From an uncultured Nitrospiraceae bacterium (GTDB lineage: Bacteria; Nitrospirota; Thermodesulfovibrionia; Thermodesulfovibrionales; Dissulfurispiraceae), in NCBI GenBank assembly GCA_947085205.1, contig CAMTVO010000046.1:1-16895 (forward strand): a DNA stretch of 16,895 nucleotides, written 5' to 3'. Shown here piece by piece: positions 7,287 through 16,354 of this stretch. Position numbers and translations under genes: made by a program. The notes under the pieces are model-generated. The model was not told where the DNA came from, ran no database searches, and saw only the letters and a list, made by a program, of their open reading frames with translations. Numbering within the stretch: the first letter of the stretch is position 1; each line of letters starts with the position of its first letter.

Positions 7287-8334
7287 GATACTCATCAAGA
7301 TTAACATCTTTCTTTGCCAATTTTCTAATGTCTTTCGGCCTGAATGCGCCCTTTTCAGTGATAATTGCCGTCACATATTTTGCCGGCGTAACATCAAATG
7401 CCAAGTTTATTACTTTTACCCCTTCAGGCGCAACCCTATGCCCCCAGATTGTTGTTACCTCTTCAGGATGGCGCTCTTCGATGGGGATAAGCTCTCCTGA
7501 GTTCATGCTGAAATCTATACTGCTTGTCGGTGCTGCAACATAAAAGGGTATGCCGTGCTCTTTGCACAGCACAGCAACAGTATATGTCCCTATCTTATTT
7601 GCCACATCCCCATTCCTTGTTGTCCTGTCTGTTCCCACAATTGCGAGGTCTATCATCCCCTTTTTCATCAATGCGCCTGCTGTATTGTCCGTTATCAATG
7701 TAACCGGAACTCCTGCCTGCATCAGCTCCCATGCGGTAAGCCTCGCTCCCTGAAGCACCGGCCTGGTCTCGTCTGCTATTACTTGTATTTTCTTGCCCTG
7801 TTCTATTGCGACAAATATCGGGGCTGTTGCCGTGCCGTATCCGCCTGTTGCAAGACTTCCTGCATTGCAGTGAGTGAGAACTGTATCGCCGTCTTTTATA
7901 AACTGCGCTCCCCACCTTCCTATTGCCTTATTAACTTCAATGTCTTCCTCATGTATTTTTTTTGCCTCTTCAATGAGAAGTTCCTTTAACCGATTAACCG
8001 ATTCACCCCTTCTCTCTTTCAAAAGCCTTCTTATCCTCTCAACAGCCCATTTTATATTTACTGCCGTAGGCCTTGTTGAAAGCATGACATCAAATATGGT
8101 CTCTATGCCTTTTATGAAGTCCCTGTAATTCTTTGCCGTTATATCCTGTGCGCCGAGAGCTATCCCCATCGCCGCTGCTATGCCGATTGCAGGCGCGCCT
8201 CTTATCCAGAGTTTTTTTATGCCCTCGGCAATGATATGATAATCAGCGCACTCAATGAACTTCACTTCCACAGGAAGCCTGCTCTGGTTAAGCATCATAA
8301 CTTTCCCGTCTTTCCACTCTATTGCTTTTACCAT
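7273..8334 (-). CDS. mtnA: S-methyl-5-thioribose-1-phosphate isomerase
   Basis: IRGAPAIG, TRPTAVN, LTHCNAGSLATGGYGTA, ETRPVLQGARLTAWEL, GDVANKIGTY, FDVTP. Start placed at ATG 8334 (GGAG 7 nt upstream). Confidence 0.97.
   Translation of the reverse strand: MVKAIEWKDGKVMMLNQSRLPVEVKFIECADYHIIAEGIKKLWIRGAPAIGIAAAMGIALGAQDITAKNYRDFIKGIETIFDVMLSTRPTAVNIKWAVERIRRLLKERRGESVNRLKELLIEEAKKIHEEDIEVNKAIGRWGAQFIKDGDTVLTHCNAGSLATGGYGTATAPIFVAIEQGKKIQVIADETRPVLQGARLTAWELMQAGVPVTLITDNTAGALMKKGMIDLAIVGTDRTTRNGDVANKIGTYTVAVLCKEHGIPFYVAAPTSSIDFSMNSGELIPIEERHPEEVTTIWGHRVAPEGVKVINLAFDVTPAKYVTAIITEKGAFRPKDIRKLAKKDVNLDEYQVKV
8309..8328. repeat. Left 20-bp direct repeat of the defence island (within mtnA 5' end)
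   Basis: tctttccactctattgcttt, identical to 16335-16354. Confidence 0.9.
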
Positions 8335-8425
8335 TAAAATCTCCATGAATTCATCATATTAAAACCGTCCTGTCTTTAATGAAAATAATATATATTTCTA
8401 TTTTAACTAATTCTTAATGTTTTAT

Positions 8426-8462
8426 CCTTCCAACCTCGCCTCAAGCTCTGATTTGAAATCCC
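8426..8462. repeat. 37-bp direct repeat, copy 1 (duplicate of res 3' end)
   Basis: ccttccaacctcgcctcaagctctgatttgaaatccc, identical to 10848-10884. Confidence 0.95.
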
Positions 8463-8467
8463 GAAGG

Positions 8468-8592
8468 AATTTCCGAGACAGCGTTTCGGAAATTCCAGAC
8501 ACTGTCTGGGAAATTGGAGTCAATTCTGCACGCAGTGTGTGCATTTTCTTTTGGATTTTTTCTGGCAATTCTGCACACGGTGTGTGCAGAAT
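8468..8592. repeat. Four tandem palindromes with 3-nt centres inside the DUF1016 fragment
   Basis: AATTTCCGAGAC-AGC-GTTTCGGAAATT (8468-8494), CCAGAC-ACT-GTCTGG (8495-8509), TGCACGC-AGT-GTGTGCA (8527-8543), ATTCTGCACAC-GGT-GTGTGCAGAAT (8568-8592). Confidence 0.88.
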
Positions 8593-8939
8593 CTCTTTAT
8601 AAGTAATATAGAACTGCCTCATATGCCAAAGATTTCTCTCTGTAAATCCCTTGCCAAATTGTGGGGTTAAGTCAGCCGATATCTTTTTAAGTAACGCCTC
8701 TCCATATTCTGCCCTTTCCTTACCCTTCTGCTCAAACTCCACAATCTCTCTGCCAATCTCATAATATGCAAGCACCTGCGACTTGTTGATCTGCCGAACA
8801 GCAGTTGCCCTTGCAGAATGGATAATTTCAGCAAGGCGTTTAAACAGCGTGCTATATTTGCTGTGTTTTATTTTTCCGGTCAAAACTTTTCTCCTGTGTC
8901 CGTCATCTCTCTCCCCTTATCCTGTAATCTTGCCTCAAC

Positions 8940-8987
8940 ATCCGAGCCGTGAGTTCAGGATAGGGTTGTCAACGGCAAGGGACATTA
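8940..8987 (-). repeat. 48-bp cassette-boundary repeat A (mini-ORF MSLAVDNPILNSRLGC*, 8935-8985)
   Basis: 41/48 identical to 9664-9711; preceded by RBS-like AAGGAAAGG. Confidence 0.88.
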
Positions 8988-8997
8988 GCCTTTCCTT

Positions 8998-9402
8998 CTA
9001 CGAGTATCTCTTTAAAAATTCATCAACAGTGATGATTTCAATTCCACTGTAGGTTTTCAGCTTCAGAAGATGGGAATCACCGCTCACAATAAGCCTTGCA
9101 TTTCCGTCTATCGCAAGATTTATAAATACATTGTCCGAAGGGTCATCATTTACAGGATGCTCTCTTGAAGAGACATCAATATTCTTTCCTAAACTTTCGA
9201 GGTCTAAAACGACATGGTATATCTCATCAGCATCGAGTCCGAACTTCTTTGATAAAACCCTGACAAGTTCATCCTTTGTCTCTTTGCAGATCAACAGCCT
9301 TAACTTGGCAGACTTTATGATCCGCAATGCTTGACGGGGTTTTCCCTTCCACAAATATCCCAATATAAGGACATTTGTGTCGAATACAATTGTTTCTTTC
9401 AC
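8998..9402 (-). CDS. PIN-domain toxin (PIN_3 / VapC-like)
   Basis: IVFDTNVLI, DDPSDNVFINLA, IVSGDSHLLKL; GTGA overlap with the upstream small gene. Confidence 0.92.
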   Translation of the reverse strand: MKETIVFDTNVLILGYLWKGKPRQALRIIKSAKLRLLICKETKDELVRVLSKKFGLDADEIYHVVLDLESLGKNIDVSSREHPVNDDPSDNVFINLAIDGNARLIVSGDSHLLKLKTYSGIEIITVDEFLKRYS

Positions 9403-9623
9403 TTGCTCTTTCTGACCTCACTCACTATCTTCTCGACTTCCTTCAAACTCATTGGTGCAATCTTTTTCCTTTTGGCCACCTCATCCATATAGGAAAAGAT
9501 ATCTCTTTCCTCTTTGGCTGGAAACACGATAACCTCAACCTTGCTTCCGGGTTTAAAAGGGAGGGGTTTAACGGTAACGCTTTTATCCCTCTCAACCTCT
9601 ATAAGTTTCTTTATTGCCTTCAT
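9399..9623 (-). CDS. Probable antitoxin of the PIN toxin
   Basis: 74 aa, RBS AAAGGAGG, 4-nt overlap with the PIN gene, LPFKPGSKVEVIV beta motif and EVEKIVSEVRK tail. Function inferred from position. Confidence 0.75.
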   Translation of the reverse strand: MKAIKKLIEVERDKSVTVKPLPFKPGSKVEVIVFPAKEERDIFSYMDEVAKRKKIAPMSLKEVEKIVSEVRKSK

Positions 9624-9663
9624 CTTTGGCCTCCTTTAATTTCTCTGTTTATATATTACCAGT

Positions 9664-9711
9664 ATCTAAGCCGTGATTTCAGGATTGGGTCATCAACGGC
9701 AAGTGACATTA
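9664..9711 (-). repeat. 48-bp cassette-boundary repeat B (mini-ORF MSLAVDDPILKSRLRYW*, 9656-9709)
   Basis: 41/48 identical to 8940-8987; its ATG overlaps the DUF86 stop (TAATG). Confidence 0.88.
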
Positions 9712-10050
9712 TTTGACCATACCCTTCAGTATTTCTTGAATAACCGGTTTAACCTGTGGAATAACATCTTTGATTGTATGCCATACGAGATCATATTTAA
9801 TACCGAAGTAAAAGTGGATTAATCTGTCCCTCATGCCTGCCATTTCTTTCCATGGAACTTGAGGATATTTATTTCTTATCGTTTCCGGCAATCCTTTTGC
9901 GGCTTCACCAATGATTTCAAACTTCCTGATAACAGCGCTTGATACCATATCGTTTTTCTGAAAGTCTTCAAAGTCCATGTTTTCAACAAACTTTTCAATG
10001 GCCTGCATTGCCTCTAAAATATCCTTTAGATAAAGGGCATAATCTCTCAT
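9709..10050 (-). CDS. hepT: DUF86 / HepT-like HEPN ribonuclease toxin
   Basis: YLKDILEA, AVIRKFEIIGEA, PWKEMAGMRDRLIHFYFG (RX4HXY motif). Confidence 0.93.
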   Translation of the reverse strand: MRDYALYLKDILEAMQAIEKFVENMDFEDFQKNDMVSSAVIRKFEIIGEAAKGLPETIRNKYPQVPWKEMAGMRDRLIHFYFGIKYDLVWHTIKDVIPQVKPVIQEILKGMVK

Positions 10051-10355
10051 AAATATGCCGCCTCTTTTAATATGCTGTCTTTAATTTCCATTCTGAGAGC
10101 GCTTTCAGGGACAACATCAACACTGCAACTCAATTTCTCCTCAAGGAATAAAGAGAGTCCTGTAAAATCTAAAAGGTTGGCTCCCTCATCGAATTCTACC
10201 AATACATCAATATCGCTCCCTTCTTTTTGCTCGCCTTTTACATAAGAGCCGAAAATGCCCTTTATCTCAGCCCTGTATTTCTGCCTGACCTCTGCTTTAA
10301 GTCCGTTTAGAACCTGAAGAATCTCGGATGCAGACATTGCCTTTACATCACTCAT
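10047..10355 (-). CDS. mntA: Minimal nucleotidyltransferase antitoxin (MntA-like)
   Basis: GIFGSYVKGEQKEGSDIDVLVEF (GSX10DXD), VDVV; ATGA overlap with the HEPN gene; RBS AAGGAGG. Confidence 0.93.
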   Translation of the reverse strand: MSDVKAMSASEILQVLNGLKAEVRQKYRAEIKGIFGSYVKGEQKEGSDIDVLVEFDEGANLLDFTGLSLFLEEKLSCSVDVVPESALRMEIKDSILKEAAYL

Positions 10356-10411
10356 TTTAGCCTCCTTAGTGTCGGCTTTATTTATAAATTTTAACCTTTC
10401 CCTTTCATAAT

Positions 10412-10440
10412 CTCAATATCTGAGCCTCTGCACCTTCAGG
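10412..10440 (-). repeat. Degenerate partial copy C of the cassette-boundary repeat
   Basis: ctcaatatctgagcc (10412-10426) matches ctcaacatccgagcc (8934-8948) at 13/15, followed by the shared ttcagg after a 3-nt indel. Confidence 0.55.
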
Positions 10441-10504
10441 TAATATGCATGTGCCCTTTTGATCTCGCCAGACAAAATAAATATACCTGTCCTATTTTTT
10501 ATTC

Positions 10505-10819
10505 TCACAGTGTGTAGCGTTTTTCAATATCTCCATAAATCAGATAAAACTGACGAATTGCTCTTAAGTGAGGTTCGCCCCAACCCTTGCCAAATTGTTT
10601 AGTCAAATCTCCAGAAAGACGCTTGAGCAAAGCCTCGCCATACTCTGCCCGTTCCTTCCCCTTCTGCTCATACTCCACAACCCTCCTTCCAACAAGCCAG
10701 TAAGTAGCCACCAGCGCGGTATTCACATACCGCACCGCTGTTCTGCGTCCCTGATCAATCAGCGATGCAAGGTCTGTGACAAGCGTGGAGTATTTATTGG
10801 TCTTTGTACTCTTTTTCAT
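10505..10819 (-). pseudogene. Truncated DUF1016 (YhcG-like) N-terminal fragment
   Basis: VNTALVATYWLVGRRVVEYEQKGKERAEYG...FGKGW...RQFY; stops abruptly at KRYTL. Confidence 0.82.
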
Positions 10820-10843
10820 TCACTGCCTTTTTCAATCATTTCT

Positions 10844-13354
10844 TCAACCTTCCAACCTCGCCTCAAGCTCTGATTTGAAATCCCTGTAAGTCTTTTCCCT
10901 TAAGGCCTTAAAAAACAAATCATAACTCATTGGGGATAGAAATTTGAAGTAATAATTGTGTTCTTTTTGCAGTCTATTAAGCCTGTTAAAATGTTCTTTT
11001 GCAAACTCAAGTTTTTTCCTGTTTTCATCCCCCGTAACCCCTTCATGTGCCTTGTCATCTTTAATTTCTACTATGAGGATATCATTCTTAACTTTGATAA
11101 AAAAATCAGGGTTAAAACTTCCTTGTTTTGGATGTTCTCCTTTTCTCCATGAATAATCTATTTTATAAAAACCTACATCAAGGGATTTTATCCATGTATC
11201 AATTGCTTTAGCGTTTTCTTCCTTAATCAAGCCCTGTATAAATTTTCTTTCAGGTTTATAGGATGATAAGACCACATTGAGAGGGGTTTTGAAGTTGTAA
11301 CGATTCTCGATCTTGACAATATCAATAAGTTCGCCATCCTCTTTCATTTCAACCAGTTCATTCAAGAGTTTTCTATCTCCTTCCTCTCCTGATAAGAGGG
11401 AGTAATCGTTCCAAAATACCGTGTTATCACCCCGTAAAGCTCTTATACCTACACTGTTCTTATTCATATTTTCAGTGCTGATTTTATAGGGTTCTTTCGA
11501 TTTTGGCACTATCCTTGGAAATGTGCTACTTTTCCTTTTAATAACACCAAAAGCCTGTAATGTTTTCTGTCTATTTTCTTCACTAATCATACCTGTCTTA
11601 TCGTTTACTTCTTGTAAAGATCGCAGGATAATCTTGGTAATTTTTTCTTTGGGCCATTCCCTGCAATAGTTAGTCCCTGCATCCTGATCAAAAATATATA
11701 GTCTATTAAAAATGTCGTTAGCCACCTCTTTAACTGGATACATTGTATGTGCAATGAAATATTCTTTTTTCTCTTTTATACCAGTTATCGCCATCTCATA
11801 CTCTGTCTCTTCCGAGATAATCTCAGCCTGACTGGAATAAGTAATATATCCTTTTTTAAGCAGTTCAAATTCACCTTCTTTCGGATATTCCTTGCTTTCT
11901 TCTATTATCTTTTCATAATCAATTTGGTACAGGTCAAAGTTATAATTCTCTTTCTTTTTTACTGGATACGATGATATTCGTTTCTCAATTTCCAAAACCT
12001 CATCTACCAGATGCTTAATACTATTTGACCATTTATCGTGATTGAAGACTGTAACAACCGGCTGTTCACCTTTATATATTTCCGGTATCCTTAAACCCCT
12101 TCCCAAAACCTGCGCAATAAGAAGTTTTGAATTAAATGCTCTCTCCTCGTGTGGGACAATCTGAAATACATTTTTAACATCCCAGCCTTCTGAAAGCATA
12201 CTGACTGAGGTAATCCACTCAACAGGATTATCCTTGTCATCAACTCTTTGTAATATCGGGATATTATTCTTGTGTTCATTGGCAGAAGTAACAATTAAAA
12301 CCTTCTCTGCTGCTTTATCTTTACTGATTTTTTCCTTTTTGGAAAGAAATGCAATTAGTTTATCAGTTAGCCGTTTGCATGCCGCAATGTTTTTTGTGAC
12401 CAAGATAGTGATAGGTTTTACCTTCCGGTATTTTACTTTCTTGTTCTCAATATGATTTTCGTAAATTTTCTGAAACTTCTCGTTTTCATTTCCTGATGAG
12501 TCCTCTGCAACATAACGGATGGATTTAACAAATTTTGTTTCTATGGAATCCCTCAGAGAAAAGCGATGAATGACATCGGTGAAATAATCATCGCCAATAT
12601 AACAGGTGCCTGAAAGATTAACGATATATTTAAAACCATATTTTGGGTCAAGCAAGAACTCCTTCCATTTTTTAAGCGCTGTATCAGATGGACTCATCAA
12701 ATGATGGGCTTCATCGTTTAATACCAGTGTCTGTTCGCCTTTTCCCGCAAGGCTGTCTTCAATAGCGGATTTAGTATTAATGTAAGTGGCATGGATGTTT
12801 TCAATGCAAATATCTTCCTTTTGAATAGTATTTGATGCATTGATAATGCGAGGATTGATTATCTTAGAATCAGATGGCAGGAGGTCTTTTAGTGTTCTGT
12901 CAGAAGAAAGACCTCGAAACTTTTCTGTTAAACCTGTTTCAATAGTATTTGAAGGGCAAAGAACTAAAACTCTATTAATCGCTCCTTCAGCAAGCATGAT
13001 GCGTGCGATGCCATACATTACATAACTTTTTCCAGTAGCTGTTGCATGCTCAAGAGAACAGGAAAGTTTATCTGGCAATTGCAGGTAACTTACAAAGTCA
13101 TCAAAAGATGAATATTTTTCCTGAAGTTTTGGATTCCTGTGATAATTTTCCTCTGCCAAGTCTTTGAGGTTTTTGTATTCACCGCCCAAAAAGTATCGCA
13201 GTGTCTCTCTGATTGCCTCTTTCTGATATTCCCTGTCACCGCAGAGGGCATCCAGAAAAGGCTCGTATTTGTTTGGCTCAAATTTGTTAGGATTGTAATT
13301 AGGGGATACTTTGAGGACTAAGTCTTTATTTTGAAAAGTCTGGCGGTCAAGCAT
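10844..13354 (-). CDS. res: Type III-like restriction endonuclease subunit (SF2 helicase plus PD-(D/E)XK nuclease)
   Basis: REYQKEAI, ATATGKS, DEAH, MLSEGWDV, QVLGRGLR, FNPDFF...VEIK. Start placed at ATG 13354, just after the upstream stop. Confidence 0.92.
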   Translation of the reverse strand: MLDRQTFQNKDLVLKVSPNYNPNKFEPNKYEPFLDALCGDREYQKEAIRETLRYFLGGEYKNLKDLAEENYHRNPKLQEKYSSFDDFVSYLQLPDKLSCSLEHATATGKSYVMYGIARIMLAEGAINRVLVLCPSNTIETGLTEKFRGLSSDRTLKDLLPSDSKIINPRIINASNTIQKEDICIENIHATYINTKSAIEDSLAGKGEQTLVLNDEAHHLMSPSDTALKKWKEFLLDPKYGFKYIVNLSGTCYIGDDYFTDVIHRFSLRDSIETKFVKSIRYVAEDSSGNENEKFQKIYENHIENKKVKYRKVKPITILVTKNIAACKRLTDKLIAFLSKKEKISKDKAAEKVLIVTSANEHKNNIPILQRVDDKDNPVEWITSVSMLSEGWDVKNVFQIVPHEERAFNSKLLIAQVLGRGLRIPEIYKGEQPVVTVFNHDKWSNSIKHLVDEVLEIEKRISSYPVKKKENYNFDLYQIDYEKIIEESKEYPKEGEFELLKKGYITYSSQAEIISEETEYEMAITGIKEKKEYFIAHTMYPVKEVANDIFNRLYIFDQDAGTNYCREWPKEKITKIILRSLQEVNDKTGMISEENRQKTLQAFGVIKRKSSTFPRIVPKSKEPYKISTENMNKNSVGIRALRGDNTVFWNDYSLLSGEEGDRKLLNELVEMKEDGELIDIVKIENRYNFKTPLNVVLSSYKPERKFIQGLIKEENAKAIDTWIKSLDVGFYKIDYSWRKGEHPKQGSFNPDFFIKVKNDILIVEIKDDKAHEGVTGDENRKKLEFAKEHFNRLNRLQKEHNYYFKFLSPMSYDLFFKALREKTYRDFKSELEARLEG
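10848..10884. repeat. 37-bp direct repeat, copy 2 (true res 3' end)
   Basis: Identical to 8426-8462. Confidence 0.95.
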
Positions 13355-13356
13355 AA

Positions 13357-14295
13357 CTAACAACTCTCTAAGAAATTCAGTTGGTCTTTATTACAGAAAG
13401 TTAGTATTCGTTCATCATAAAATTGATTCTTTTGTGTAAAAATACTTTTATTTATGATTTCTTTTTTGGCTAATTTGTTTTTAGGAAAAAAAGAAGCGGC
13501 ATATTTTTTATAATAAATGCTCTTAAATTTCCTACCACCCATAATTACTTTAGGAAGGTCGGCATTAACAAGTATCTCAGCAACTTTACACTTTCCCTCA
13601 TGATTTGAGGTATTATCTAACACTTGGCTGATACCACCGATAGTCAGGTCAACATATTGTATTATGTGGCTTTCGTCCTTATACTTTGCTTCGTCATCGT
13701 GATTAGAGTCCACTTCTGTAATTTCTAAGCTCTTGAAAGTAAAAGCAATGGGTTCACCTTGTATAACTGCTTTGAAATTTATTTCTGCAATGGGCTGTGA
13801 GTGGAATTTATCTTGTGGGGTTCTACTTTTTGTATCAGAAAAGATATTTTGTATCACAACTTTTTTAAAGCCAGCATTTTGATTTAGAAAAAACCATTTG
13901 ATTGCCCCATATAATCCTATTTGAAAAAAGCGATTGTAAATCTTAAAATCCTTTGTTTTTGTATTCCAAAGGTCTTTTGCAAGGTTGGTATAATTCACAC
14001 CTAAAAGGTAAAAGTAGGTACTGTTATGTAAAGAGTTACAAAATAGATTAGCCCATCTTATAGCGAGGTCATTCATAGTTCGTGTATCTTTTAAATTAGA
14101 AAAGCGTATCTCTTTTTCCCATGTGCTCGCTGCCCTTTCCTTCTCAAGTGTGTCTATTAGTTGTTTTTTAAACCCAATAGGAACGAATAAGAAACCATGA
14201 TATAGCCATCTCTTTGGAATTTCCCGTTCATCATGGTAAACAAAACATCTAATCTCTTTCGGCAAATTTACATTACCAAAAATATCATGGCTCAT
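13357..14295 (-). CDS. Hypothetical protein, DUF3800-like, between mod and res
   Basis: 312 aa, AT-rich. N-terminal FVYHDE, central FSD and C-terminal DS...IIQYVDL resemble the DUF3800 DE...QxxD pattern. ATGA overlap with mod. Confidence 0.7.
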   Translation of the reverse strand: MSHDIFGNVNLPKEIRCFVYHDEREIPKRWLYHGFLFVPIGFKKQLIDTLEKERAASTWEKEIRFSNLKDTRTMNDLAIRWANLFCNSLHNSTYFYLLGVNYTNLAKDLWNTKTKDFKIYNRFFQIGLYGAIKWFFLNQNAGFKKVVIQNIFSDTKSRTPQDKFHSQPIAEINFKAVIQGEPIAFTFKSLEITEVDSNHDDEAKYKDESHIIQYVDLTIGGISQVLDNTSNHEGKCKVAEILVNADLPKVIMGGRKFKSIYYKKYAASFFPKNKLAKKEIINKSIFTQKNQFYDERILTFCNKDQLNFLESC

Positions 14296-16292
14296 TTTGT
14301 TTTAAAGTCCTTTAATGTCTTCACTTCCCGCTTCTCGTTTCCAAATATATCTATGTAAATCACCATGATCTGCGCTTTGACCTTATCATCTGGAAATCTC
14401 ACTTCATAGCCATTCTTCTTTAAATCTTCGGCATAGAAGACCTCATCTAAATCAAAGACCTCTCCATTAAAATCATAATCAATCATTACCATAGAGAGGG
14501 TTTCAAGATTGGCAAACTCAACCGGCTTGCGGGAAATGACTTTGCTTTCAAACTTCTCAATTTTAATTACACATTCTTTTGTCTTCTGGTTAAGAAGGTC
14601 AGGATTTTTAGGGCTTTCTAAATAATACTTGCACTCAACCTTTGGCACTTGTATAAAATCAAAGCCTACAGCATCAACAGTATCGTTAACATCCATCTCA
14701 CTCACAGGTTGCTTGATTTTTGTAAAACCTCGATTGTGGATTTCTTCTATAATGGAATAAGGAATACGAAGGATAAAGTATTTTGCCTTGCCTTTCCCAA
14801 TGTAATCCTCAAGGAATTGAACAGAAGCAGCAGGAGCTATGATAAAAAATCTTCTTCCAATCTTATCCCCAAGATGTTTATGTAAATCATCAATAAAACC
14901 CCTGTCCATCATAGCATCAGAATATTTCTGATAATTGAAAACCATAACGCTGTCTGCTCCGAGATAACCGTCCAATTCAATTCTTGAAATCTCATATTTC
15001 TCATCTCGGCACTGAAAGAGCTTCAAAGCAAAGTCTCGATACTGCTCCCAATGAAGTTCTTTAATCATCTTGTAGTCATAAAGACCGGCATTGTAGAGGG
15101 TGAAGGGCTTGGGAGGCTTGCCGTATTTCTTCTTTGGATTTTCCAAATCCTTGCTCTCTGCAATGTTCAATAGCCGTTTTTGCATCGTATAGATTGCCAG
15201 CTTTCCACAATCCACACCAATCCACCGCCTGCCAAGTTTTTCAGCAACGGCAAGAGTAGTTCCTGAGCCAGCAAAACAGTCCATCACTATATCACCTTGA
15301 TTGGAGGAGGCTTTGATTATGCGACTTAAAAGCGCTTCTGGTTTTTGGGTTGGATAACCGATTCGTTCCTCTGCGGTACCTTGAACAAAAGGAATCTCAA
15401 AAATTTCCGTGGGCTTTCCCTCTTTCATATATGCCTTTCTAACCGTTCCATCATTATCGTAATAAAGTTTATATCGCCTCCCTTCCTTATCCATTTTGTC
15501 ATAGCGACGTATTGCCTTATCATCATATTGGATAAGTGTTGCTTCTTCATTGAAATTATAATTATCTGATTTTGTATAAAAGAAAAGAATATCGTGTTTT
15601 CTCGGAAAGTTTTTTTCTGTGCTTGTTGGCCCAAAGTATTTCCAAATAAGGTCATTTCTAAATTTTGTCTCCCCGAATACCTCATCCATCAGCACCTTCA
15701 CATAATGTGCCTTCTTCCAATCCAAATGCACATAAATACTTCCATCCTCACTCAACAACTCCCGAAGGAAAACTAATCTCTTTCTTAAAAACTCCAGAAA
15801 CCTTGCTCCTGCAATCTTGTCCTGATAAGCCTTTTGGTCTTGACTTCCTCTGAACTCCTGCTTTGTTGCAAAGGGCGGGTCAATATAAATTAGCCTTACC
15901 CCTGGCGTGCCATCAGCATTTTTGAGTTTGCCTTTTTCTTTCATCCGTAAGAGTTCCTTCAACACCTGAAGGTTGTCACCAAAGATGAGCATGTTCGTCC
16001 AGAAATCCCCCTCACCCTTGCCCTCTCCCGCAAGGGGAGAGGGAATTATTCCATTACGAAAAGTCTTGACCTTTTGCAATGGCACAGCCATAGTGTCGGC
16101 AAGAATATCTTCTTCACGCTCTTTATCGGCATAAATCAGTTCATATTCTTTCTTTGTATCAAAAAGGAGGGAATGTTTGAGCTTTCTGAGGTCGCTTATA
16201 AGAGCATCTTTGTAATGCTCAGGCAATGGCTTGCCCTTTTCTAAATAGCTTATGACCTTATCAATATGACTATCAGATAATTCTTTCATCAC
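14292..16292 (-). CDS. mod: Type III-like DNA adenine methyltransferase (beta class, Mod)
   Basis: GDNLQVL, IYIDPPF, YPTQKPEALL, DCFAGSGTT, RRWIGVD, C-terminal IDIFGNE. Start is GTG 16292 or ATG 16289. Confidence 0.94.
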   Translation of the reverse strand: MMKELSDSHIDKVISYLEKGKPLPEHYKDALISDLRKLKHSLLFDTKKEYELIYADKEREEDILADTMAVPLQKVKTFRNGIIPSPLAGEGKGEGDFWTNMLIFGDNLQVLKELLRMKEKGKLKNADGTPGVRLIYIDPPFATKQEFRGSQDQKAYQDKIAGARFLEFLRKRLVFLRELLSEDGSIYVHLDWKKAHYVKVLMDEVFGETKFRNDLIWKYFGPTSTEKNFPRKHDILFFYTKSDNYNFNEEATLIQYDDKAIRRYDKMDKEGRRYKLYYDNDGTVRKAYMKEGKPTEIFEIPFVQGTAEERIGYPTQKPEALLSRIIKASSNQGDIVMDCFAGSGTTLAVAEKLGRRWIGVDCGKLAIYTMQKRLLNIAESKDLENPKKKYGKPPKPFTLYNAGLYDYKMIKELHWEQYRDFALKLFQCRDEKYEISRIELDGYLGADSVMVFNYQKYSDAMMDRGFIDDLHKHLGDKIGRRFFIIAPAASVQFLEDYIGKGKAKYFILRIPYSIIEEIHNRGFTKIKQPVSEMDVNDTVDAVGFDFIQVPKVECKYYLESPKNPDLLNQKTKECVIKIEKFESKVISRKPVEFANLETLSMVMIDYDFNGEVFDLDEVFYAEDLKKNGYEVRFPDDKVKAQIMVIYIDIFGNEKREVKTLKDFKTK
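16007..16043. repeat. Small REP-like palindromic element in frame within mod
   Basis: ccccctcacccttg-ccctctccc-gcaag-gggagaggg has a perfect 9-bp stem, is GC-rich in an AT-rich gene, and encodes PSPLAGEGKGEG. Confidence 0.85.
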
Positions 16293-16334
16293 ACCTTTTT
16301 AAAAATAGCCGAAAACCAAACTCTAAACTTCTCA

Positions 16335-16354
16335 TCTTTCCACTCTATTGCTTT
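16335..16354. repeat. Right 20-bp direct repeat of the island; dead mtnA 5' remnant
   Basis: Minus strand after the mgtE stop: GGAG RBS then ATA-ATT-AAA-GCA-ATA-GAG-TGG-AAA-GAT (IIKAIEWKD), versus mtnA MVKAIEWKD. Confidence 0.9.

Follow-up and report, generated by a model that had tools for sequence, protein, structure and literature searches.

The window, by which we mean the whole 16,895-nt stretch of DNA analysed here, contains an island of about 8 kb that holds a mod and a res gene and no integrase. Read along the minus strand, the order is mgtE, a dead mtnA start, mod, a 312-aa gene, an 839-aa type III res gene, a DUF1016 fragment, the boundary sequence C, an MNT gene, a HEPN gene, repeat B, a presumed antitoxin gene, a PIN gene, repeat A, a DUF1016 fragment with a copy of the res 3' end, and an intact mtnA. 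The features are as follows.

8421..8462, minus strand: 3'-end remnant derived from the 839-aa res gene (second copy at 10843-10884)
8422..8883, minus strand: DUF1016 N-terminal fragment fused to the res 3'-end copy, from sequence
8935..8985, minus strand: repeat A, a 33-nt res 5' remnant (8985-8953) fused to the core leader, with a mini-ORF of 16 codons
8998..9402, minus strand: PIN-family toxin gene (PF13470, TIGR00305)
9399..9623, minus strand: presumed antitoxin gene, 74 aa, without family match
9624..9709, minus strand: repeat B, a 32-nt res 5' remnant (9709-9678) with the core from 9688 and a leader
9709..10050, minus strand: HepT-like (DUF86) HEPN gene (PF01934)
10047..10355, minus strand: minimal nucleotidyltransferase (MNT) gene (PF01909)
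10385..10498, minus strand: C, a separate recurrent boundary scar and the left edge of the MNT-HEPN unit, from sequence comparison
10505..10819, minus strand: second DUF1016 N-terminal fragment, from sequence
10844..16292, minus strand: resident type III R-M operon (mod 14292-16292, the 312-aa gene, res 10844-13363)
16324..16354, minus strand: dead mtnA start in its native place after mgtE, duplicating 8298-8328; the intact mtnA follows the island

An earlier note on this DNA had described duplicated termini at three nested levels of the island, and the two outer duplications are present, one from the res 3' end and one from the mtnA 5' end (31 nt, 20 exact). A similar 3'-end remnant follows the res gene of another locus, L080. 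In two of 29 relatives' mtnA loci (L223 and L233) mgtE is joined directly to mtnA, giving an empty site; four of the 29 were unparsed, most others have a different upstream gene, and L223 and L233 belong to other genera, at about 72-74% identity to the window, rather than to the same species. Judged by this empty junction, the island probably sits in the mtnA start, with a 31-nt duplication.

Within the resident operon, the 312-aa gene between mod and res (13357-14295, minus strand) has no Pfam, NCBIfam or PADLOC match and is a candidate embedded defence gene. The mod gene start (16003-16047) matches many foreign contigs that then diverge, and is probably a small dispersed repeat. The DUF1016 linker region holds a direct repeat with palindromic arms (8521-8597; 32 nt, 81%), and depth in run X1 is reduced over 8433-8867. 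Two RNA runs contained 5-7% of the short sequence words. The 74-aa gene is called an antitoxin from its position, since it has no family match; it is paired with a PIN gene in L028, L078 and L099 as well.

A (8940-8987) and B (9664-9711) form a real repeat, as had been claimed: they are identical at 41 of 48 positions, are spaced 724 nt apart and enclose the antitoxin-like and PIN genes. The runner-up 48-mer match in the whole 1.89-Mb genome reaches 29/48, and the best 48-mer matches in 20 shuffles of 8401-10900 reach 28-32/48. A and B differ at repeat positions 8, 20, 21, 26, 35, 44 and 45, and the reported excess at third codon positions is confirmed (five of the seven). Each contains a minus-strand mini-ORF, reading MSLAVDNPILNSRLGC and then a stop in A (8985-8935) and MSLAVDDPILKSRLRYW and then a stop in B (9709-9656). 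The claimed coupling of both ATGs to the preceding toxin gene holds for B, whose ATG shares bases with the upstream HEPN stop (TAATG), but not for A, whose ATG lies 12 nt past the PIN stop without overlap.

C had been read as a degenerate copy of the repeat bounding the MNT-HEPN pair. It does form the left edge of that unit, but it is not a third copy: it has no gene-start half, and its local score against B is equalled by 255 of 2000 shuffles. Over 77-112 columns C aligns to a scar in L021 and L022 with scores of 97 and 134, versus 20 against B and 27 against A. A search of 301 genomes returned no parent gene for C and only three further copies of the scar at E<1e-9.

The two halves of repeats A and B

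A and B are two-part chimeras in which a short microhomology marks the join between the start of a res gene and a recurrent leader that we call the core. For the left half, the suspected likeness to a type III-like res N-terminus was correct, and that gene start is found intact in relatives. The intact parent genes in L075 and L072 score 1034 bits on NF046055 (BPTD_3080 family restriction endonuclease; cut-off 800) and begin MSLAVDNPILNNPFEEP; A follows the parent DNA for 33 nt and B for 32 nt. The window's own 839-aa res gene, with 78 bits on the same model, is not the parent of A and B. When 401 genomes of the phylum were searched with a pattern of the first 32 nt, 11 gave a match, every one of them in the window's order, and the reversed control gave none; the 11 places found outside the window's own genome comprise one intact gene and ten remnants of 30-124 nt.

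Intact BPTD_3080 operons are arranged mod-cargo-res, with changing cargo directly 5' of the res start. Five intact loci have five distinct upstream cargo sets and differing chromosomal neighbours, the cargo being DUF1016, DUF433-DUF5615, an MNT and PemK pair, a Schlafen-type gene, or an AAA group (a label assigned by eye). Cargo and res start are inherited together: five of the nine intact/remnant pairs tried align in one unbroken piece through both (relative to the ATG, L073/L084 from -637 to +56, L073/L136 from -619 to +113, L076/L085 from -1006 to +38, L072/L077 from -1218 to +230 and L072/L173 from -1099 to +80), and the other four align in separate pieces only. Breakpoints in the res start vary. 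Across 50 copies, which include near-identical strains, five are full, 21 are core chimeras broken at nt 30-33, and 24 end elsewhere at 32-230 nt, one of these at a contig end; because the loci behind the core, breakpoint and context counts were partly fetched with the core, chimeras are over-counted.

The right half recurs with left halves other than the res start. In 709 kb of loci that had been selected for the core, it occurs 53 times and its reverse not at all. A 161-nt query containing it matched 37 of 301 genomes of the order, seven of them in the upstream part only, so about 30 touch the core; the named records with a core belong to Nitrospirae and Thermodesulfovibrionia. The core leads either into Schlafen-start remnants or into a ribosome-binding site, that of an MNT, antitoxin, DUF433 or addiction-module gene. 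Among other boundary pieces, one goes back to the terminus of an L152 gene of 1025 aa that has Methylase_S matches, another goes back to the start of a Schlafen/AlbA gene in L085, and a third is what we take to be an Eco57I-like C-terminus.

Pattern, blastn, profile and order-wide searches did not find the parent gene of the core, and no long ORF ends in it. The res 3' end was rejected as its source, as intact 3' ends differ, and so was an ATPase C-terminus, for which a back-translated pattern run over the genome collection gave three matches, all of them scars in loci of the set already analysed. An origin in the hsdS 5' end, suggested by a motif, gave no significant match by blastn or profile in 30 hsdS loci, and the order-wide search for it returned further scars only. 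There was no exact core in viral contigs and no match in plasmids, which does not in itself prove absence from phage or plasmid carriers. Some core copies have insertions of about 20-24 nt at one place, some of them palindromic (L096 from 3926, L081 from 1618, L102 at 2068, and run X2).

The earlier note had offered as an alternative that the repeat encodes a conserved peptide of 16-17 aa, to which a translation-coupling leader under selection may be added. Of 23 chimeras, 21 retain the ATG, the DPILKSRLGYW frame is mostly open, and variation over codons 1-10 of the 23 chimeras, whose copies are not independent, is 23/9/56 by codon position. A coding parent explains this third-position bias, however, and the native res gene accounts for both the start codon and where it lies; moreover, the core half shows stops, frameshifts and non-synonymous changes, and many core copies lack the ATG half. 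We therefore regard selection on a peptide or leader as very unlikely. The bias fits a res half that would be renewed from coding alleles.

Arrays, unit exchange and filled and empty loci

Elsewhere in the order the repeat bounds different cargo. Among 25 chimera contexts, 16 classes can be distinguished upstream and 12 downstream; one of the upstream classes is only a short contig end. Cargo followed by 38-230 nt of res start lies stranded at other places, up to four times per array. Four res starts, each closing a cargo unit, are present in L090 and in L098/L144, two to four boundaries are present in each of L021, L096, L135, L136, L139 and L141, and two boundaries or remnants are present in L173, which lies on a 590-kb contig of a genome made up of four contigs.

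In the window itself, two units that other genomes carry separately are joined within B. Its MNT-HEPN unit with C and a res start (10498-9684) is present at 87% in L022, inserted in a duplicated start of a gene that we take to be pilD (prepilin peptidase), and its unit of core, antitoxin, PIN and res start (9690-8964) is present at 83% in L099. The stretch shared at this junction in B is about 13 nt, and the B leader carries the ribosome-binding site of the next gene. As a separate observation, the pilD start is a common insertion site that holds different cargo in three genomes (L022, L026 and L028). In contigs of run X4, the antitoxin-PIN unit (9111-9686, five differences) and the MNT-HEPN unit (9657-10367) have other neighbours at B, with breaks at 9657 and 9686, and contigs of run X3, from another study, do the same at 9691. 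A back-joint in run X2 (9660 to 8940 plus 24 other letters) was considered as a circle and rejected; it consists of 22- and 31-nt pieces only, and we read it as another core copy. No excised A-B joint occurred in four runs, although these are contigs and carry no weight on the point. The first 101 nt of L238, in a genome of another family, match the PIN end and repeat A at 99% and then continue into different genes, which reflects either recent transfer or a binning error.

It could be asked whether an assembly artefact has strung strain variants together in this way, given that the window comes from a metagenome-assembled genome and that many related loci lie near contig ends. We find this scarcely credible, since contigs of run X5 (from what is possibly the source study) bridge A (8700-9004) and B (9631-9810) with no differences, the same chimeric junction recurs in diverged form in many genomes, the shared exact stretches are only 13-15 nt, and two remnants lie on the 590-kb contig of the four-contig genome.

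Crossovers inside the core can be read from pairs of loci. L095 lacks the 852-nt unit that L139 carries between two core copies, and the flanks are 99.8-99.9% identical; the single core copy of L095 combines the left part of the first L139 copy with the right part of the second, the crossover falling in an exact stretch of 15 nt. The filled form of this locus is also present in L097. Similarly, L024 lacks 1.3 kb that L096 carries between core copies, with flanks at 98.6% and 91.5%. Neither pair gives a direction of change.

The main rival to recombination at the repeat is pure decay by deletion, in which whole R-M islands would arrive repeatedly at one place and erode, addictive TA pairs surviving with a few res-start bases, the core being a passive fossil and repeat-to-repeat deletion acting only in loss. 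Internally deleted res genes that keep both ends (L031/L085 and L077), a locus with decayed mod and res and cargo between them (L028), and the L095 junction, which is compatible with simple deletion between direct repeats, all speak for such decay, and it probably contributes. Nevertheless, the arrays of four res starts would need four full cycles, all ten remnants from the res-start pattern search are at most 124 nt long, and cargo that does not look addictive (Pycsar, HerA, LmuB-like and DUF1016) also lies flush with a remnant. As such, decay as the entire explanation seems unlikely to us.

Integron tests and the proposed mechanism

Integrons and CALIN consist of co-oriented small cassettes, rich in TA genes, with a repeated boundary and with units lost between repeats. 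The integron attC site is an imperfect palindrome with R'' and R' boxes that forms a bottom-strand hairpin. The island resembles these systems in its co-oriented TA-rich cassettes, repeated boundary and unit loss between repeats, and differs from them in that attC folds and boxes, attI and a linked integrase are lacking, the breakpoints vary and the boundary comes from coding sequence. In the folding check suggested for attC-like structure, A, B and C gave no stable fold beyond that of shuffles on either strand (z +1.1 to -1.7). A crude box-and-fold scan with a box consensus, run without a positive control, found 0 attC sites in the genome, and there was no Rfam match at E<=0.1. Neither an integrase nor attI is present in the window, and no linked recombinase was found among 88 neighbouring protein representatives from 142 clusters, the other clusters being judged by eye as housekeeping genes or short or antisense frames. 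One IS4-type fragment lies in L021.

The crossover position is likewise not fixed, as res remnants end anywhere from 30 to 230 nt and only the chimeric subset clusters at 30-33. With no attC structure, no linked recombinase and variable breakpoints, we conclude that this is not an integron. The earlier proposal of cassettes shuffled at remnants of R-M gene termini without attC or integrase is upheld insofar as units are gained and lost at the repeat, but its integron-like mechanism is not. Neither circumstance that the note named as refuting applies, since the repeat does match a gene start and does bound variable cassettes at other loci.

A related possibility is that an unlinked site-specific recombinase, such as a solo integron-type integrase, uses the core as its genuine site, which would make the system integron-like with a new type of site. 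Across the order, copies of the core come with a ribosome-binding site for the gene that follows, the 21 chimeric junctions cluster at nt 30-33, a full integron-type integrase gene lies on another contig of the window's own genome, and such a gene scores above cut-off in three of five genomes tested. However, the fold is no better than chance and the crude scan and neighbour survey above gave neither attC boxes nor a recombinase, in 24 of 50 copies the unit closes with a res remnant and lacks a core, substitutions and insertions are tolerated along the whole length of the core, and a genome with two remnants (G528) has no integrase match above cut-off. The unlinked integrase keeps this in-trans model in play, at low odds. 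The gene itself (own genome G000, contig C28, 38384-39682, minus strand) encodes 432 aa with a long N-terminal extension and scores 414 bits on TIGR02249; a divergent 267-aa ORF lies beside it near the contig end, where the crude scan found no attC.

The reading we favour, with a confidence of roughly 0.68, is that A and B are recombination scars, each composed of the first 11 codons of a BPTD_3080-family res gene and a recurrent leader, that illegitimate recombination with a homologous anchor likely produced them during gene transfer, and that they are likely reused as short homology for the gain and loss of cargo. In this mechanism, proposed from sequence comparison, incoming DNA, perhaps taken up by natural transformation, would pair at one conserved end and join by microhomology soon after the res start; such a one-sided join would add a unit and push older cargo downstream. 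With a longer res piece, pairing would proceed normally and the cargo would be replaced rather than added to, which would explain the short remnants. The chimera would offer about 33 nt of homology to an incoming cargo-res end and 30-50 nt to other copies, and for this reason could have become widespread as a shared joint. Stranded units may be retained through TA addiction.

Several observations bear on how far this mechanism can be taken. All five genomes tested have the genes comEC and dprA, as do 10-11 of 14 controls, and the two genes therefore only permit the model. The exact crossover stretch of 15 nt is short for RecA, and homology-facilitated illegitimate recombination is described as rare in the part of Kirchberger et al. 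2017 (PMC5361080) drawn on here. The variable joins and the stretch of about 13 nt shared at B are compatible with it. Nearly all the loci come from metagenome assemblies. A more ambitious version, which we consider improbable, would make the joint a domesticated universal docking site in an order-wide, integrase-free cassette system that captures defence genes before BPTD_3080 res and supplies the ribosome-binding site of the next unit; a dedicated enzyme of short-homology or site-specific type, with its gene at another locus, would act on the joint.

Relation to known systems

R-M insertions that leave long, variable duplications of the target have been reported for types I-IV, mostly in naturally competent species, in the sections of Furuta et al. 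2010 (PMC2853133) used here. The island resembles those insertions in containing R-M genes without another mobile element and in being flanked by what is probably a duplicated piece of the target (the mtnA start, or the pilD start in L022). Such insertions are recognised by R and M genes within less than 20 kb and an empty site in a relative, and the mtnA duplication is at the lower limit of the >30-bp criterion of that paper. Unlike the whole R-M units in the sections used, the nested duplications here are res gene starts that close each cargo unit and persist without the R-M gene.

Arrays of T6SS effector-immunity genes in Vibrio cholerae, and Rhs/CDI orphan arrays, are described, in the part of PMC5361080 noted above, as integrase-free products of sequential displacement with gene-end remnants, for which homology-facilitated illegitimate recombination is proposed. 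The arrays studied here are likewise integrase-free stacks with gene-end remnants. In contrast to what that part describes, their cargo is made up of TA and anti-phage genes from an R-M slot, each unit is followed by a remnant in the form of a gene start, and one chimeric remnant is common across families and loci and is itself a crossover site. TgvAB, according to the excerpted account in PMC11411939, are defence genes embedded in the type I cluster of VPI-2. The likeness there is a slot just before the restriction gene with changing defence cargo; the differences are that boundary scars and stacking are absent from that excerpted account and that the restriction gene here is the type III-like BPTD_3080.

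R-M insertion with target duplication, displacement arrays and defence genes in R-M operons are thus already known and each cover a part of what we describe. To these the locus adds a chimeric scar that has become separated from its R-M operon and recurs in different families and at different loci, with crossovers inside it traced through filled and empty pairs. The literature searched, which did not extend to subscription papers and supplements, contained no description of the A/B repeat. The loci bear on how defence genes come to be embedded in R-M operons and stacked in integrase-free islands, and because each step has left readable scars, in the form of intact donors, stranded units and filled and empty pairs, the mechanism is testable. 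The repeat also serves as a search handle for defence cargo, as Pycsar, LmuB-like, HerA and SIR2 proteins, a defence-type reverse transcriptase and several proteins without family match adjoin it.

Two further observations were made along the way. Another pair of recurrent boundary scars, without the core, lies in the window's own genome on contig C21 (7502-7580, plus strand), and reverse transcriptases best matching PADLOC RT_UG21 lie directly before a core copy in L147 (2513-3940) and L152 (8326-9945).
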